NCBI GenBank assembly: GCA_000934665.2
Contig: JYFJ02002175.1
Span: 1 to 61,692 of the forward strand
DNA: 61,692 nucleotides
Source of the DNA: Catajapyx aquilonaris
Lineage: Eukaryota
Direction: 5' to 3'
Every line of letters starts with the position of its first letter. Position 1 is the first letter of the stretch. The notes under the pieces were generated by a model that did no database searches, was not told the origin of the DNA, and was given only the letters and a program-made list of their open reading frames with translations. Position numbers and translations under genes: made by a program. Positions 2,613 through 60,635 of the stretch are shown in pieces.

Positions 2613-3736
2613 TTAGTCCTTTTCTTTAAAGCAGGATTGAATATCTACGTAACACTTGCAGTCATCAGTTGCTTTCATTTTCGGCACTGAAAAAAAAACA
2701 TTCTATTACTTACATTCCATTCTGAACGAAAGGGAAAAATATTTTAAATTATACTTGCCCTTATCTTTGCAACAATTTATTGATTTATCTACAAAACTAG
2801 AGACAGTCTTGCAACTCTTCCTCATTCCCTCCAGTATAGCCATATCAGGTTTGCCATCTTTGCCAATCTGTCCTCAAAGAAATGAAAAATAATGATAGAA
2901 CACCAAATTATGTAAAAGATGGGTTTGGGTTCATTCTTGAATTTAAAGTTGAGGTATACCAGAGAGTAATTTACCAGCCTTCATGATAAATTGATTATTA
3001 TAGGCACGATTTTTGAGAACAAGGCGATCCAAATAGGCCATCATACTGTATGTAAAAATTATCGTATTATAATAAACACAGTATCGCGTCCCAAAATATG
3101 AAGACACTCAGGATGAGGATAGAAAGATAAATAAACAAAATAAATAAATATTGCAGTGGGCTACATGTATAGGCCCTAATGGCTATCTATAATATTGATA
3201 AGCTGAATTTTTTGACAAGTTTTTAAAATACGGATACAACGTACAGCTATGGTAACGATTTTATGATATGCGCTGTTTTCAAGTGCGTAGTATGAAATCA
3301 TAGACTTATTACTCTCAGTTATACCTAATTTCCTAAATCTCACTTACCGCTTTCAGCTTCTTAAATAAGCATGGTATCCTGCACTGTAAATAACAAAGAA
3401 GTGTCAGTAAATTGGATACGGCATGATAGGTTATTTTGGGATTACATTGGAAAATATTGTGTTATAAAATATTGACACTGTGGTATACCAGAGGGTCTTT
3501 GCTGTTCGCTTTGTCATTCTTGCATTCTTCGTAGGTAGACTCATATTTGTCAAGAGCACACTGAAACAAATAAATATTGCCGACATAATTATGCATGACA
3601 GCAGGTATGATCCAATGAACTATTTTATGATAATTATAATATACCAATGAAGAATGTACAATACCTGGCTTGATGTCTCTTGAACAAAAATGGCACTGGC
3701 TAAGAATATCAGCAGAATTCCGTGGACCGACTTCAT
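2613..3736 (-). CDS. Secreted Cys-rich odorant-binding-protein (PBP/GOBP)-like protein, copy A, 120 aa, 5 exons
   Basis: Exons 3736-3665 (signal peptide MKSVHGILLIFLASAIFVQETSSQ), 3560-3489 (CALDKYESTYEECKNDKANSKDPL), 3383-3348 (CRIPCLFKKLKA), 2867-2759 (IGKDGKPDMAILEGMRKSCKTVSSFVDKSINCCKDK), 2686-2613 (VPKMKATDDCKCYVDIQSCFKEKD*). All acceptors AG; donors GT, GT, GT, GC. C-X3-C-LF-K-L...G-K-P-D and C-X8-C are OBP hallmarks. Exon structure matches copy B. The gene model is firmer than the family call. Confidence 0.8.
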
Positions 3737-5992
3737 AATGAACATCTGCCTCACAGCTATACCTGTTGTGTTAATGATTTTTGTCGCTTCGCTTGTTTTA
3801 TGGGACTCTCGACACGACACATACGTTGACATTATAAATATCAAATACTTGGGAAATCCCGTCACATGTCCGACGCAGCACATCTTTGTACCGCCACATT
3901 TTTAGTTGCATGTACGCACGCAAATTACAATATGAAACCTTGACAATTCAGGATTCGCAGCAATTGCATGTCACTCATGGTATTCAGACTTTTTGATATC
4001 AACTAATTAAAGATTGTGACTTACACTAATAATATGTTGCAAGTCAGCATGGGATGTCCAAAGAGTGTCTCATATAGTCAGACGTCTCTTACAACTACTG
4101 TTGTGTATATACCTACTAGATTGTATGCTCAGAAATTCTTCATTTCAATGGCAAAAAATTCTATCACTGCTACTAAATTTTGCAAGTCACGCTGTGACAT
4201 TGTTGATGCGTGGATGGAAACGTGCTGTCATAATCATTTTATGTAACTGATGTTGCATCAGTTTTCTATGAAGTCTAATGAACTGCTTCTGGAAGGATCG
4301 AATATTAATAAGTTTTGTGTCAAAAGCTTGCATATAATAAAGCAGTTGTGACGTTTACATAGGCGACCTTATTACGGCTCAAAAAACGATCAATTCTAAG
4401 ACTATTATTACAACTCGAGCTTTGAAGAAGGCCTACTTTTTAGCCAGGTACTACAACTAAAAATATCTCTCTCATGCAGAAGTTATCTAAAGCATTTTTC
4501 AGAGTATATGGTGCAGTGTAAACTTTCGATGCCCATCGTCATGCAGGTCTTGGCGTCTCGGAAAATTAGTTACAATGTATAATCGCAATCTGCTCCTATA
4601 CTGGATTTACCTTTGACACTAAGGTGGAAAGAAAGTACCGGTACCATAACTGTCAATTATGAGGTTATTACAGAAGAAACAGATCGTTCAGTAACATTCG
4701 AAACATTTGATTTATCTCTTCAATGAGTTGTCAATTTCACAGCCTTCAATTTATATTGAGTGAAGAATACAATCAGATTATTTTAATAGGTTACTGTTTC
4801 CGAAGCACGGGTAAAAGCACTGGAAATTGGTAAATCGGTTTGTATGAATAATTGCACTTTTCCGTCGCATGTTTTTTCCTAATTAATCTGAACAATAACC
4901 TCTGTATAGATACGAAAGCTACACTGGATGTACTGTACGTATATTTCTACGTGGCAAGCAACATCAAAATCCCTACAATATTACGCTCATGTTCTTATTT
5001 CCAACTTGGAAAATAATGTGCTGACCGATTTGACAATCCAGCCATTTTCATGGCAACCATCAACCTGATAGAAAAATCACTCTCTACAAAAATTGTAGAA
5101 CATGACTCGTAGAAATTATTGTGTGGAGGAAAATAATTGCGAAAAGGGAAATGGTACCGAAGTAATATTAGCACTGACAAGTGAGTGACAGCCAACTTGA
5201 GTCGTTCGTAGAAGATTAGACTATAATGATGAAAACAAGTCATGAGTGAGAGACCGAAATGAAGTTTATATGGTTTTTGGACTATTTTCAAGCTAGTATA
5301 GTAGTAATTACTTTCCAAAAGTACATACTTATGCAAAAATTTAAGTTGATATCTCTGGACTGATTTGTCAAACAAAATTATTTTTCCTTATTAATTGGTA
5401 AGGTAGTATAAAGGTGTGAAATACGTGTTCCCTGTGATGTTATTATATACAGAAATAAAATGACATTCTTCTTGCGTTATCCGCATATCACAAAATAATT
5501 ATGCTTGCAAAACGTGTAATAAAGAAATCTATTGATCTAGAGGTAATATGCCTAATATTAAAGGCAATATTAAGGCAATAAATATTCAACTTCTTTAGTC
5601 ATTTACATTGATTCAAAAGAAAATTAATTGTGTCTCATTGTTTCGGAGATATGGCTTATTCGAATCAATCATAAGCATTTTGCATTATTGCCTCTATATT
5701 GGAACTAATTGGGAAAGTTGGAGGTATAATCACTCAGAAACATCGAAAATGTGTGACTAGCAATAATCAAGTAGGATACTTGAAGAATGGCTTCTAACAG
5801 GGTACCTTTTGTGGCGATTCGATTCAAATAATTAAAAACATTTTTATTACTGCATATAGTTTTATTACGTATAGATACAGTTTTCAATATAGCCTGCTGA
5901 AAGAATGTGCTCATCCGACATAACGAGTGAAATTGAATTATTACATAGACGGGAGTAATTTTTACTGAACTGGATTCTGTATAATATTATGA

Positions 5993-6686
5993 TTATTTCT
6001 TTTCTTTGGGAATACAGTCGTAAATAGGGTCGTAACCACTGCAGTCTCCACTACTGGTTGTAACTTTAGGCACTGAAAAAATACACGAAAAACCTCAGCA
6101 GTTACGTTACCTCTTCAATTGAAGCTATAATAATATTCTGTCAAGAGTATGTACAGTAGCCTACCATTTTCTCTCCAGCACTCGATCATAGCCTTGGTGT
6201 CGTCATCAAGCGATCCAGAGTCTGAGTTACAGTTCTCGATCAGTTGCTCGAGTTTAGCCATATCAGGTTTCCCATTTCTTGCCATCTACACATTTTGAAA
6301 ATGATTTAAATTAATTATTACACTACATGATTGCTAGATAGAGTACAATCTGTGTTATGTGTGAACACTCACTACTCCAAGTTTCTCAAAGAGGCAAGGC
6401 ATCACACACTGGGAAAAAATTACGAATGTGTTACTATTACCACCGGACCATTGCACTGCGAAAAATATTGTCACCTTAGCTTTCTCCGGACTTGAATTGT
6501 GCCTGCTGCATTCATTTACAAAGTCTTCCATATCATGTTCGCTTGGACACTCCTGCTGTAAACGATCATTATATCTACATTTGTAGAAAATACAACAGCT
6601 ATGATTATTCGTGTTTTTCTTACCTCTCCTCGAACGTGGTGACTAACACAGATGCAGATCAATGTCAGGATGCTCAGAAGCTTCAT
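5993..6686 (-). CDS. Secreted Cys-rich odorant-binding-protein (PBP/GOBP)-like protein, copy B, 125-126 aa, 5 exons
   Basis: Exons 6686-6624 (MKLLSILTLICICVSHHVRGE), 6555 or 6552-6475 ((Q)ECPSEHDMEDFVNECSRHNSSPEKAK), 6408-6373 (CVMPCLFEKLGV), 6285-6165 (MARNGKPDMAKLEQLIENCNSDSGSLDDDTKAMIECWREN), 6072-5993 (VPKVTTSSGDCSGYDPIYDCIPKEKK*). All introns GT-AG, phases 0,0,0,1 as in copy A. Confidence 0.82.
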
Positions 6687-6740: not shown

Positions 6741-6746
6741 TTTATA
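6741..6746 (-). promoter_or_regulatory. TATA box of OBP-like gene B
   Basis: TATAAA on the minus strand about 55 nt upstream of the ATG at 6686; copy A has a CATAAAA near 3796-3802 at similar spacing. Confidence 0.55.
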
Positions 6747-7708: not shown

Positions 7709-8253
7709 GGCCAAACGACACCCCAGATTTGAGCGGGAATCTTCATGGGGCTAAAATCGCTGCTATCTCTAGTAAAAACCTGCTATCTGAAGCAATAATA
7801 GCTATAGCAGATAGCAGATATATTCTACAACAGCAGTTATAAATATTAGACACTTATTGCTCTCATATGCGAATAAGGCGAGCAATACAGGTAAGATAAT
7901 GTGCTGAAACCTAAACCAACCAAACAGTGATTACGCATTGCTCATACCGTAATTATAAATTGCATATTTGACTAACTGTTAACAATGGTTACTTATTAGC
8001 TATTAATGTTACTTGATGACATTTGCTGTAATAACTGTTACGTTATGGGGGTCTCTTCGCCATCTTTTTCTGAAAGGCTTGGTAGGTGGTGGTCAGTGGT
8101 CGTCTTTTCCGCGTTTGTCTAATTTTGGTAGCCGTTTCAGTCGCCCCCTTTTTTTTTTACGTCCAACCTGTATTCCCTGCCTCATCAGACGTTGTTCATA
8201 ATCAGCCAGTTGGTGTGGCTTTTTCGACTGCGGGTCCGTTGTTTCTACTAACC

Positions 8254-8501
8254 ATGCCTGCTGATCAGATTCAATATTCTGAGAAGTACTCAGACGGGCA
8301 GTACGACTACCGGTAGGAATAGTGGAGTGTGGTGCATTAGAAAGATAGGTTTTGACACTATGTGTTCTTACAGGCATGTTATCCTGCCTCCCGACATTGC
8401 TAAGCTGGTACCCAAAGCACACATGATGACCGAGACTGAGTGGAGGAACATTGGTGTGCAGCAGAGTCCGGGCTGGGTGAACTTCATGGTTCACAACCCG
8501 G
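8254..8501 (+). CDS. Cks1: Cyclin-dependent kinase regulatory subunit (Cks1/Suc1 family), coding exons 1-2
   Basis: Exon 1 8254-8312 [20 protein letters not shown], 61-nt GT-AG intron, exon 2 8374-8501 [42 protein letters not shown]; diagnostic YSxKY, YRHVxLP and EWRxxGVQQSxGW motifs; accATG context. Confidence 0.97.
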
Positions 8502-8614
8502 GTAAGCATATTGTGTTGGACTGTAGTGCAAACCAGTTGTGCCAGTGGGGAACTTTTACAACATTTGAAGTCCTATTCTAGGTATATTTTTTACCAATAT
8601 TTTGACTGGCTTCG

Positions 8615-12979: not shown

Positions 12980-13657
12980 CAGGGTGATTACAAATGAATA
13001 GTATAATTACAAATGCATATAGCTCCGTACCTATCAACCGCACATGAACGTGTTATACACCAAATGAAAGAGGAGGTTTTAAAGTTTATTTCATACCTTA
13101 TAAATGTTCTATATGACTTCCCTTGGTCACTCGAGAAACGTCAATCCGATAGTGCAATTCCTCCTATACTCGTGCCAGCATGTCCGTTGTCACTGACTCA
13201 ACAGCAGTAACAATGCGATGTTTGAGTTCATCCAGGGTTGTTGGCATCGGTGGCACGTACACAGCATCCTTAACGTACCCCCAAAGGAAGAAGTCGCATG
13301 GCGTCAAATCCGGCGACCTTGGGGGCCAGCAGTAAAGCGCCAAGTCTGGCAGGTCACTGCGACCTATCCAACGACGAAGGAGCACATTGTTCAGAAACTG
13401 GCGAACATCTGAATGCCAGTGCATTGTTACTGCGGTTGAGTCAGTGACAACGGACATGCTGGCACGAGTATGGGAGGAATTGCACTATTGGATCGACGTT
13501 TCTCGAGTGACCAAGGGAAATCATATAGAACATTTATAAGGTATGAAAAAAACTTTCAAGCCTCCTCTTTCATTTGGTGTATAACATGTTCATGTACGGT
13601 TGATAGGTACGGAGCTATATGCATTTGTAATTATACTATTCATTTGTAATCACCCTG
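12980..13657 (-). mobile_element. Tc1/mariner (maT/DD37D-like) foldback derivative with transposase C-terminus
   Basis: TA|CAGGGTGATTAC...GTAATCACCCTG|TA; arms 12980-13216 and 13421-13657; minus strand WIGR...WPPRSPDLTPCDFFLWGYVKDAVY. Confidence 0.93.
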
Positions 13658-29059: not shown

Positions 29060-29127
29060 CCACTCTCAATTTGTTACTGCACATGATCCTAGAAGATGCT
29101 ATATTGAGGCATGCTGAAATATCATAC

Positions 29128-29397
29128 CTGTCCTAGTATGGTCCCACGGGGAATCTTGATGTACTTTGTCTCATGTCGCTCTTCAAGCCAGTTACCAACA
29201 AGGGTTTCTGGGGTGTATGAGCTCTCAGTTTTGTAGTTCCTCCAGCCAAACTCTTTGAACTTGCTGATTTCTGGGTATGGGCTGTCATCCCAGGGCTTGC
29301 ATGAACCACTGGCCCTCACATCCCCAGCCAGGCATGGCAGCTGGGGAACAGGTGGGCAGAGGTTGGCTTCTAAATGGAATTTCAGATTTATCTCCAT
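29128..29397 (-). CDS. CFAP68: CFAP68/C11orf1 (UPF0686)-like ciliary microtubule inner protein, main coding exon
   Basis: ttccacag|ATG...GQ|gtatga; VRASGSCKPWDD..SKFKEFGWR..ESSYTPETLVGNWLEER matches the recalled C11orf1 pattern V.A.G...W....SKF...GWR....Y...TL.GNW..ER. Confidence 0.8.
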
Positions 29398-29601
29398 CTG
29401 TGGAATGTTGGAGAGGACTGTTTGGAAGTAACTATGGCAGTATATTATTTAAGCAGGGTAGGCAACAGGTAAAGGCTGGGGGAGGGGCTTGAGGTGAGGG
29501 GGCATTCATGCCTTTTCAAGTTACACTTCCGCTGACATTATAGAGTGCAAGTAAATATTTAAAAATGTAACACTCAAAAGTCCAGCAAAGTATTAGACAA
29601 A

Positions 29602-59478: not shown

Positions 59479-59997
59479 CAGACATATTGTCCGTTCGTTA
59501 CGCAGGTTTTGCAGACATGTACTAGCGTATTTTATTGTAACAATACACACACACACACATTGTATGAAATGGATTAGTATGCATACTTAATCAATTTCAT
59601 GCAATGTGTGTGTGTGTATTGTTACAATAAAATACGTTTATAAGGGAGGCGTGGTAGTCTAGTGGTTATGCCACTGACTAGCCAAGTGGGAGGCCGGGGT
59701 TCAAATCCCGTCCCCGTCACCTCTGCTTGGCCGGGTCTTTTTCCGCTTTTCACCCGACACGCCGGGGCAGCATTGCACTCCCTTAGCTGCCCGGGGCCAG
59801 AGAAAAGGTCTGGTGATCTGAGAGAGTCGTGAGTGACTATAAACCGTGGATGTCCCCCCTTGGGAACCTTTCCCCTCCCCCCAAAACGAGCCGCAATGGC
59901 TCGAGCACGGGGTAACAATAAAAAATAATAATAATAATAAAAAAAAAACGTTAGTGCATGTCTGCAAAACCTGCGTAACGAACGGACAGTATGTCTG
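59479..59997. mobile_element. Palindromic MITE interrupted by a SINE
   Basis: cagacatattgtccgttcgttacgcaggttttgcagacatg mirrored by catgtctgcaaaacctgcgtaacgaacggacagtatgtctg. Confidence 0.85.
59644..59948 (+). mobile_element. tRNA-derived SINE (third family)
   Basis: A box tggtagtctagtgg, B box ggttcaaatcc, 3' hairpin cgagcc..ggctcg, A/TAA-rich tail, short acgtt duplication. Confidence 0.88.
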
Positions 59998-60160
59998 TGT
60001 TTGTGTGGAAATGCCCAGCAGCAGTATCATGAACTGATTATGAAGTTTGTTAACAATGCTTTGATCTTTCAGATATGGAAACGTGAGTGGTGCCTGAAGT
60101 CTGGTACCACCAGTCCTCATCAGCAGTGGAAGTTGTCCATCATGGAATAGACGCCATGCT

Positions 60161-60635
60161 ATGAACAGGCACCTGGACCATAGGTCTAGAAAGGCTGATC
60201 GTTCTGGAAGCATTGGGGGCGGTTGGGTGGGAATTGGGAGTGTAGGGGGAGGAGGAGGAATAATCGGTCAAAGGAAGGCAGGTGACGGGGAGGAGGCTGA
60301 GGAGGATGGCAGGAAGGAGAACACTTCAGGAGGCAGGGAGCCTTTCTCCGCCATTGTAGCCATGCCTCCGACTGGTGTGGTGGTGGAAGGGGAGGGGGTG
60401 GGAGGGAATGGTGGGGAGGGTGGGAAGAGGGAGGCTGTGATGGCTCCACGCAAGCTGCCTAAGAAGCGGAAATTTGACCCAGCGGAACTGGAAGGGATGG
60501 ACAACAATGTCTTGCCAGTAACACTGCCTGCAGCCCCACCACAGCAGCACCACCAGCACCAGTCCAGGCCGGTCATCACCACTGCACCGGCTAGTACCAA
60601 CACAGGGGCACCTGCAGTGCATCAAGTTCACAATG
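60161..60635 (+). CDS. cic: Probable capicua (HMG-box repressor) long isoform, first coding exon; gene continues beyond the window
   Basis: Acceptor tctttcag|60073, donor g|gtaaaa at 60636; Gly-rich N-terminus followed by RKLPKKRKFDPAELEGMD, recalled as the KKLPKKRKFDPSELE motif of insect Cic-L N-termini; no HMG box in the window. Confidence 0.7.

Follow-up and report, generated by a model that had tools for sequence, protein, structure and literature searches.

Introduction

Subfamilies of odorant-binding proteins (OBPs) are told apart by their cysteine patterns, which vary widely (PMC3134979), and the relationship between the insect and chelicerate members is described as unresolved (PMC8269058, PMC5952958). 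In classic OBPs (PF01395) the core bridges are C1-C3, C2-C5 and C4-C6 (PMC10926425). Plus-C OBPs carry extra cysteines in an extended C-terminal part (C4a, C6a) together with a conserved proline (PMC2808328, PMC10926425), and a looser, count-based definition takes in any OBP with eight or more conserved cysteines (PMC10926425). In VdesOBP1 of Varroa destructor (PDB 7NYJ/7NZA), mass spectrometry and a crystal structure place a bond between an N-terminal cysteine and a cysteine nine residues past the C6 equivalent (21/141); helix 2 is missing, leaving five helices and a wide-open cavity (PMC8222343). We compared these systems with two tandem genes, A and B, in a 61,692-nt stretch of Catajapyx aquilonaris DNA (hereafter the window), which is one entire contig (JYFJ02002175.1) of a 285.6-Mb genome. 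A sequence-only reading had proposed that the pair encodes atypical OBP-like secreted proteins with extra cysteines.

Our best explanation, to which we give a probability of roughly 70%, is that A and B are members of a divergent OBP subfamily of secreted carriers with a rewired fourth disulfide. We number the cysteines C1 to C6 as in classic OBPs and call the two that precede C2 Ca and Cb, the one at C6+9 C6a, and the one between C3 and C4 Cx. What distinguishes A and B is the loss of the cysteine at C6+9 together with the gain of a cysteine at C3+25. In this genome two sister layouts differ by one cysteine position and one exon, which makes a disulfide rewiring directly testable.

Structure of genes A and B

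Both genes lie on the minus strand, and both could be modelled intact, with splice sites over all 10 exons. The two five-exon structures with identical intron phases (0,0,0,1) described in the sequence-only reading were recovered, as were the 36-nt C-X3-C exon, the GKPDMA motif and the VPK..C-X8-C last exon, each present in A and in B. The features are as follows.

6741-6746, minus: TATA-like element upstream of gene A; weak, a consensus match only
6624-6686, minus: gene A exon 1, 63 nt; ATG and a hydrophobic, signal-peptide-like segment (hydropathy only)
6475-6555, minus: gene A exon 2, 81 nt; Ca (24) and Cb (37), with an amphipathic helix ahead of Cb
6373-6408, minus: gene A exon 3, 36 nt; C2-X3-C3; a 36-nt exon is also found in genes C and D of contig C485 and in the array on contig C524 (see below)
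6165-6285, minus: gene A exon 4, 121 nt; G-x-P-D motif, Cx (79, X25 past C3) and C4 (96); phase-1 donor
5993-6072, minus: gene A exon 5, 80 nt; C5-X8-C6, with the stop as its final codon
3665-3745, minus: gene B exon 1, 81 nt; ATG, followed 9 nt on by another ATG in frame, and a signal-peptide-like segment
3489-3560, minus: gene B exon 2, 72 nt; Ca (28) and Cb (40)
3348-3383, minus: gene B exon 3, 36 nt; C2-X3-C3
2759-2867, minus: gene B exon 4, 109 nt, a size more frequent among array genes than any other; Cx (82, X25 past C3) and CC at the C4 position; GC donor
2613-2686, minus: gene B exon 5, 74 nt; C5, one further cysteine at C5+2, C6 and the stop

Every intron of gene A is GT-AG; in gene B intron 4 is GC-AG and the remaining introns are GT-AG. 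The end of gene B lies 2.6 kb from the end of the contig. The product of gene A has 126 amino acids and eight mature cysteines (24, 37, 49, 53, 79, 96, 111 and 120), and that of gene B has 123 amino acids and 10 (28, 40, 52, 56, 82, 95, 96, 109, 111 and 118). The eight cysteines of A do align with eight in B, as had been claimed, but B is not limited to these and carries two more, one adjoining C4 and the other at C5+2. With Ca taken as C1, the spacing is X24, X3, X42, X14, X8 in A and X23, X3, X38/39, X13/12, X8 in B. The mature chains are predicted to be about 97-106 amino acids long, to begin almost at the first cysteine, and to have isoelectric points (pI) of 4.6 (A) and 8.7 (B); they end 6 (A) and 5 (B) residues past C6. 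The highest 9-residue hydropathy in exon 1 is 3.3 in A and 2.9 in B, values that are signal-peptide-like on hydropathy alone, and from this hydrophobic first exon we infer that both proteins are secreted.

The two proteins are identical at 34 of 95 aligned residues (36%; E 5e-18). Identity at codon positions 1, 2 and 3 is 0.61, 0.68 and 0.43, which is consistent with coding sequence, and the ratio of non-synonymous to synonymous change (dN/dS, here and below by a simple counting method) is 0.57. A scan of the whole window for this exon grammar returned exactly two matches, A and B, compared to two in total from 20 shuffled windows. A and B are thus almost certainly real genes, with splicing modelled from sequence.

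Relatives of A and B in the same genome

A search of the genome with PF01395 found three places over the cut-off (25-29 bits), all of them dimer exons on contig C485. The cluster there consists of genes with two domains and of C and D, which have a single domain each. Between 68,300 and 87,400 on C485 we counted, besides the two single-domain genes, at least three intact two-domain genes of the eight-cysteine type, in which a C-P-G-N-E-P-C linker connects the domains. Near 71.2 kb and 79.1 kb there are additional copies that appear broken (frameshift, stop). A single OBP-type gene without Cx lies at about 15,700-16,600 on contig C1130.

Genes C (54/81/36/118/80/15 nt) and D (78/36/118/80/15 nt) share intron phases with A. 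Their C3-C4 spacing is X42, the same as in A; the phase-1 intron falls 3-4 codons past C4 (Cys96 in A) in A, B, C and D; and in A as in C, codons 11 and 20 of exon 5 encode C5 and C6. The 80-nt exon ends with a stop as its last codon in A, while in C and D it is spliced to a 15-nt sixth exon that carries C6a. All 10 reference domains follow one ground plan, Ca..Cb..C2-X3-C3..C4..C5-X8-C6-X8-C6a, with a short C3-C4 gap (X28-33) in the second domains of the dimers. The two cysteines ahead of C2, singled out earlier as a special feature of the pair, are therefore common property, being found in 10 of 10 of these domains.

We built a hidden Markov model (HMM) from the 10 ground-plan domains and used local scoring. 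Spliced A scored 29.4 bits and spliced B 22.1 bits. Neither score was reached in 1000 full shuffles or in a further 1000 that held the cysteines fixed. A comparison of the Cx-type profile (28 rows, defined below) to the ground-plan profile (10 rows) with hhalign gave a probability of 97.2 (E 3.9e-11, 74 columns). P0003 is a database relative, a two-domain ground-plan protein encoded on a 1399-nt contig, and scores 35.6 bits with PF01395. Its nearest Atlas clusters are OBP47-like/PBP_GOBP (0.83-0.85, a lead only). In a fold search with its model (predicted local distance difference test, pLDDT, 59), OBP-fold chains stood in the top nine rows (Z 6.0-7.4, root-mean-square deviation 2.5-6.4, 72-121 residues aligned). 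An ortholog at C112:143,766-144,963 is 57-81% identical exon by exon and has retained, in each of its two domains, the complete set of ancestral introns. Because P0003 matches this own-genome gene exon by exon, there is a ground-plan relative whose exons do occur joined.

PF01395 membership by score was tested on single exons and read-through frames of A and B, and it is the relatives that pass the cut-off. In sequence searches of the PDB with P0003 and the C485 profiles, OBPs came up at no better than E 0.03-0.4. PF22651 found no match in the genome and none in the controls either, and an Atlas search with the exon 2-3 frame of A gave no usable match. The HMM scores, the hhalign match and the exon sizes and phases held in common point to OBP-superfamily homology, and on this kinship through related genes we place A and B in the superfamily with high confidence. 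A large OBP repertoire can evidently be nearly invisible to genome scans, as PF01395 found just three places here.

The gene array on contig C524

A motif search led to a further contig, C524, and a search of its bases 1-80,000 for the exon grammar, in which Cx was not required, yielded 27 gene models, which extend from about 8 to 62 kb (array limits about 7,500-62,000); three of them are inverted. The exon plan and cysteine pattern are the same as in A and B. Cx is present in all 27 models, 26 times at X25 and once at X26 past C3, and in none of the 10 ground-plan domains; a cysteine at C6+9 shows the reverse distribution (0/27 versus 10/10). Cx and C6a are thus mutually exclusive across the array models and ground-plan domains. 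Cysteines elsewhere past C6 were seen at +8 in one array model, at +4 in another and at +1 in three.

Four exon-2 borders among the array models were set by hand. K44776, which has a frameshift in exon 2, was included in the tree and excluded from the HMM, the dN/dS estimates and the topology test, so that the 28-row set comprises 26 array genes plus A and B. Median identity among these rows is about 23%. Seven cysteines are invariant in 28 of 28; Ca is aligned in 24, and the other four have a cysteine at the end of exon 1. An HMM of the 26 array genes gave 84.7 bits for A and 48.7 bits for B, compared to 9-40 for the ground-plan domains. A and B, which sit on another contig, share no more than 33% identity with any gene of the array and are themselves outliers of their subfamily. 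In the tree, a branch (91/89, not starred) has the ten C6a-type domains to one side, and B groups with array gene K35679 (99/95), although a clade of A and B was not rejected (p-AU 0.447). The GC donor at intron 4 of gene B recurs at the same intron in 2 of the 27 array paralogs. In four array pairs dN/dS is 0.33-0.78.

Several array members depart from the common plan. K8088 and K18097 have long acidic tails, and K61530 has a tail rich in proline, threonine and glutamate. K21035 and K23179 have an odd number of cysteines (9), which could allow dimers. K59980 (C524, about 59,600-60,200), on a long branch, combines Cx with extra cysteines at C3+30 and C6+8, possibly a secondary return of a C-terminal bridge.

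The first 9 kb of the window and C524:1-80,000 shared no OBP-related overlap (one 118-nt match lies elsewhere), and a DNA pattern for exon 3 had three matches outside the window, none in an OBP gene context. Homolog searches with exon 4 of A (15 candidates), a C485 exon (5) and a profile of four exon-4 sequences (366) gave no candidate that scored. HMMER with the C485-exon profile only (52 positions) gave three matches, of which just P0003 is an OBP. Orthologs of A and B in other species were not found by these searches, which were weak, the full HMMER search having used the C485-exon profile only. The idea that the pair forms a subfamily, one that may be lineage-restricted, holds insofar as A and B fall in the OBP superfamily and share a conserved extra cysteine pair; what does not hold is its isolation, given at least 27 more genes on C524. 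Judged by sequence, A and B belong to a divergent OBP subfamily with at least 29 genes in this genome.

Comparison with known OBP classes

A and B resemble classic OBPs in a signal-peptide-like first exon ending in phase 0, in C2-X3-C3 and C5-X8-C6, and in the C3-C4 (X38-42) and C4-C5 (X12-14) spacings. With Ca as C1, their Ca-C2 distance (X23-24) fits the pattern published for Hemiptera (PMC2808328 Table 2), and both have the classic six-cysteine spacing. Unlike classic OBPs, they have eight conserved cysteines rather than six, the two extra being a second N-terminal one and Cx, and their mature chain is short, with helix 1 or helix 2 probably missing.

An extra N-terminal cysteine is also found in VdesOBP1 and TurtOBP1-4, and VdesOBP1 has the same X42 (Cys 68/111) and C6-X8-C6a (132/141) as the ground plan of this genome. 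The fold matches of P0003 also include chelicerate OBPs. These have neither C2 nor C5 and retain the clasp between the N-terminal cysteine and C6+9, whereas A and B keep C2 and C5, lack the cysteine at C6+9 and have Cx. A and B thus fall outside the chelicerate type, defined by six cysteines, no C2 or C5, and an N-terminal cysteine bonded to the last.

Plus-C proteins (AgamOBP47/48, PF22651 OBP47_like) and the four-disulfide AgamOBP7 (PDB 3R1P/3R1V) have eight or more cysteines and four or more predicted bridges. A resemblance to Plus-C is visible in the dimers of this genome, with their C6-X8-C-P junctions, and in the OBP47-like clusters nearest to P0003. A and B, unlike Plus-C, have no C-terminal extension, C6a or proline. 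By position, as read from their sequences, they are not Plus-C; by cysteine count alone they would be filed loosely as such. Searches of the OBP literature yielded no description of an extra cysteine between C3 and C4 in the absence of C6a, although figures (for example the locust cysteine skeletons of PMC5623057 Fig. 1), supplements and subscription papers may hold one, and no OBP group with the layout of A and B appears in the accessible parts of PMC4145409, PMC6175461, PMC3134979, PMC5623057, PMC5952958, PMC5381604, PMC9779611, PMC3839933 or PMC6303780. Very probably A and B work like OBPs and are OBPs.

Proposed disulfide pairing, alternatives and function

In the mechanism that we propose, an ancestor with the eight-cysteine ground plan would have given rise to a branch that lost the sixth exon carrying C6a, after which Cx would have become fixed at the end of helix 4. 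Three core bridges (N-terminal cysteine-C3, C2-C5 and C4-C6) would have been kept, and the freed N-terminal cysteine would now bond Cx, forming a rewired fourth disulfide. In the low-confidence fragment model of an array gene (pLDDT 53.5), Cx lies at the end of a predicted helix, and it stands 10-18 residues before C4. If the three core bridges persist after the loss of C6a, the sole unpaired conserved cysteines would be Cx and one at the N-terminus, and the antiparallel hairpin of helices 5 and 6, tied by C4-C6, would put Cx about one turn from the C6a site; these two points argue that the fourth bridge was rewired rather than added. We consider it likely that this bridge runs through Cx.

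Which N-terminal cysteine would pair with Cx is a closer call. We favour Cb-C3 plus Ca-Cx, at about even odds, because of the Varroa precedent and the amphipathic helix that leads into Cb; it is also weakly favoured by K31287, which has extra cysteines at Cb+4 and C3+8 when its relative K33125 has neither. The converse wiring, Ca-C3 plus Cb-Cx, is a less probable option, favoured by a Ca-C2 distance (X23-24) that matches the classic C1-C2 distance (PMC2808328). As for the fold, the N-terminal part is not long enough to hold helix 1 as well as helix 2, so the six-helix fold expected earlier gives way to one that, by analogy with VdesOBP1, probably has five helices. Lacking one of these two helices, the proteins would probably have an open binding pocket like that of Varroa OBP1.

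A number of observations weigh against our explanation as a whole. None of eight A/B exon pieces matched Pfam, PF01395 had no match in six intron read-through frames, and PDB sequence searches with A/B pieces or array fragments returned chance matches only, with no OBP; for exon pieces of 21-61 residues, such blanks say little. The ground-plan HMM scores are modest, corresponding to E 0.08 (A) and 15 (B) at a library size of 1.8 billion proteins. The Z scores of P0003 (6.0-7.4) are within the range common for helical models, and Foldseek with the same model gave no match at E≤0.001, Varroa OBP1 being listed with a probability of 1.0. The mutual exclusion of Cx and C6a counts as one evolutionary event rather than 39 independent ones. 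Some paralogs have odd cysteine counts, so not every cysteine has an intrachain partner. In three young array pairs dN/dS is 1.03, 1.08 and 1.39, which suggests relaxed or diversifying selection. Lastly, Varroa and spider-mite OBPs with a similarly open fold bound the tested odorants poorly (PMC8222343, PMC8269058).

Three other accounts of the structure have to be set beside this one. A and B could have gained no cysteine at all, their eight being the ancestral ones with shifted spacing (79 = C4, 96 = C5, 111 = C6 and 120 = C6a). Cysteine number and order would then equal those of the ground plan, and the dimer second domains do have a C3-C4 gap as short as X28-33. We find this improbable, as it requires a C5-C6 spacing of X14 in place of the invariant X8, and the position of the phase-1 intron after Cys96, matching that after C4 in C and D, the C5 and C6 codons of exon 5 in A and C, and the placement of 96/111/120 on C4/C5/C6 by both HMM and hhalign all speak against it. 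Only marginally better odds attach to convergence, in which A and B would represent an unrelated family of small, cysteine-rich, secreted helical proteins: no piece of A or B has a direct Pfam or PDB match, and a fold search with the array-gene fragment model listed no OBP (best Z 4.5), but exon sizes and phases are common to A/B and the C485 OBP-type genes, and shuffle tests with fixed cysteines, which remove the cysteine signal, still favour kinship. That A and B are silent relics or mis-modelled fragments is the least probable of the three. B does need a GC donor and one array member is frameshifted; set against this, frames and splice sites are intact over 10 exons, the codon-position identities of A and B show the coding pattern, the GC donor recurs in two paralogs, and P0003 attests to joined exons in a ground-plan relative.

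The rival that deserves most attention departs from our explanation in site of action, not in structure. Under it, proteins with the OBP fold and rewired cysteines would act in secretions other than sensory ones, whether of gland, cuticle, haemolymph, seminal fluid or defence, in the manner of D7, Sol i 2 and the sand-fly salivary OBP-fold proteins. The large tandem array with its low median identity, the dN/dS near 1 in young pairs, the acidic or proline/threonine/glutamate-rich tails of some paralogs, and the contrast in pI between A and B are in keeping with such a role; so are the sand-fly salivary protein that heads the fold matches of P0003 and the expression of many OBPs outside sensory organs (PMC6303780). 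A large gustatory-receptor repertoire, on the other hand, fits a matching expansion of carriers, as argued for cockroach (PMC6175461). Taken as a complete account, we hold non-sensory secretion to be well short of even odds; set against a taste or contact role alone, it is nearly as likely.

The preferred explanation is that A and B are OBP-type, helical carriers of small hydrophobic molecules, predicted to be secreted and about 11-12 kDa in size, a function ascribed to them by family membership. Their most likely site of action would be sensillum lymph, in sensilla for taste or contact, or else some other secretion. Gustatory receptors (PF08395) gave at least 107 matches genome-wide, among 111 of 714 candidates scored, and many of these matches lie in long open frames and clusters. 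Odorant receptors (PF02949) gave nine matches, of which one was over the cut-off and overlapped a stronger gustatory match; odorant receptors were thus not found, which is not proof of absence. It is the many gustatory-receptor matches, with no convincing odorant-receptor match, that tilt us toward taste or contact chemosensation.

A broader and more tentative scenario, doubtful on present evidence, is that the eight-cysteine ground plan unites the N-to-C clasp of chelicerates with the C2-C5 bridge of insects and is possibly the ancestral OBP state, from which one branch lost the last exon, moved the clasp to Cx on helix 4 and radiated to at least 29 genes. If true, this would be a natural switch of disulfide partners at the base of a large OBP radiation for taste or contact sensing without odorant receptors.

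Other features of the window and genome

About 1.6 kb upstream of gene A, on the opposite strand and transcribed away from it, lies a gene for the cyclin-dependent kinase regulatory subunit CKS (8252-8578, plus; PF01111, 79.9 bits). A CFAP68 exon is found at 29122-29445 (minus; PF06608, 36.2 bits). An open frame at 13167-13484 (minus) has no Pfam match at E≤0.01; it contains a motif that we take to be one of mariner-type transposases. A long imperfect inverted repeat at about 1330-1690, seen by eye, probably represents a non-autonomous transposon of small size. Across many contigs, 409 copies of an 18-nt motif are present (29 for a reversed control), often in inverted pairs about 180-500 nt apart, and we read it as the terminal repeats of an abundant miniature transposon.

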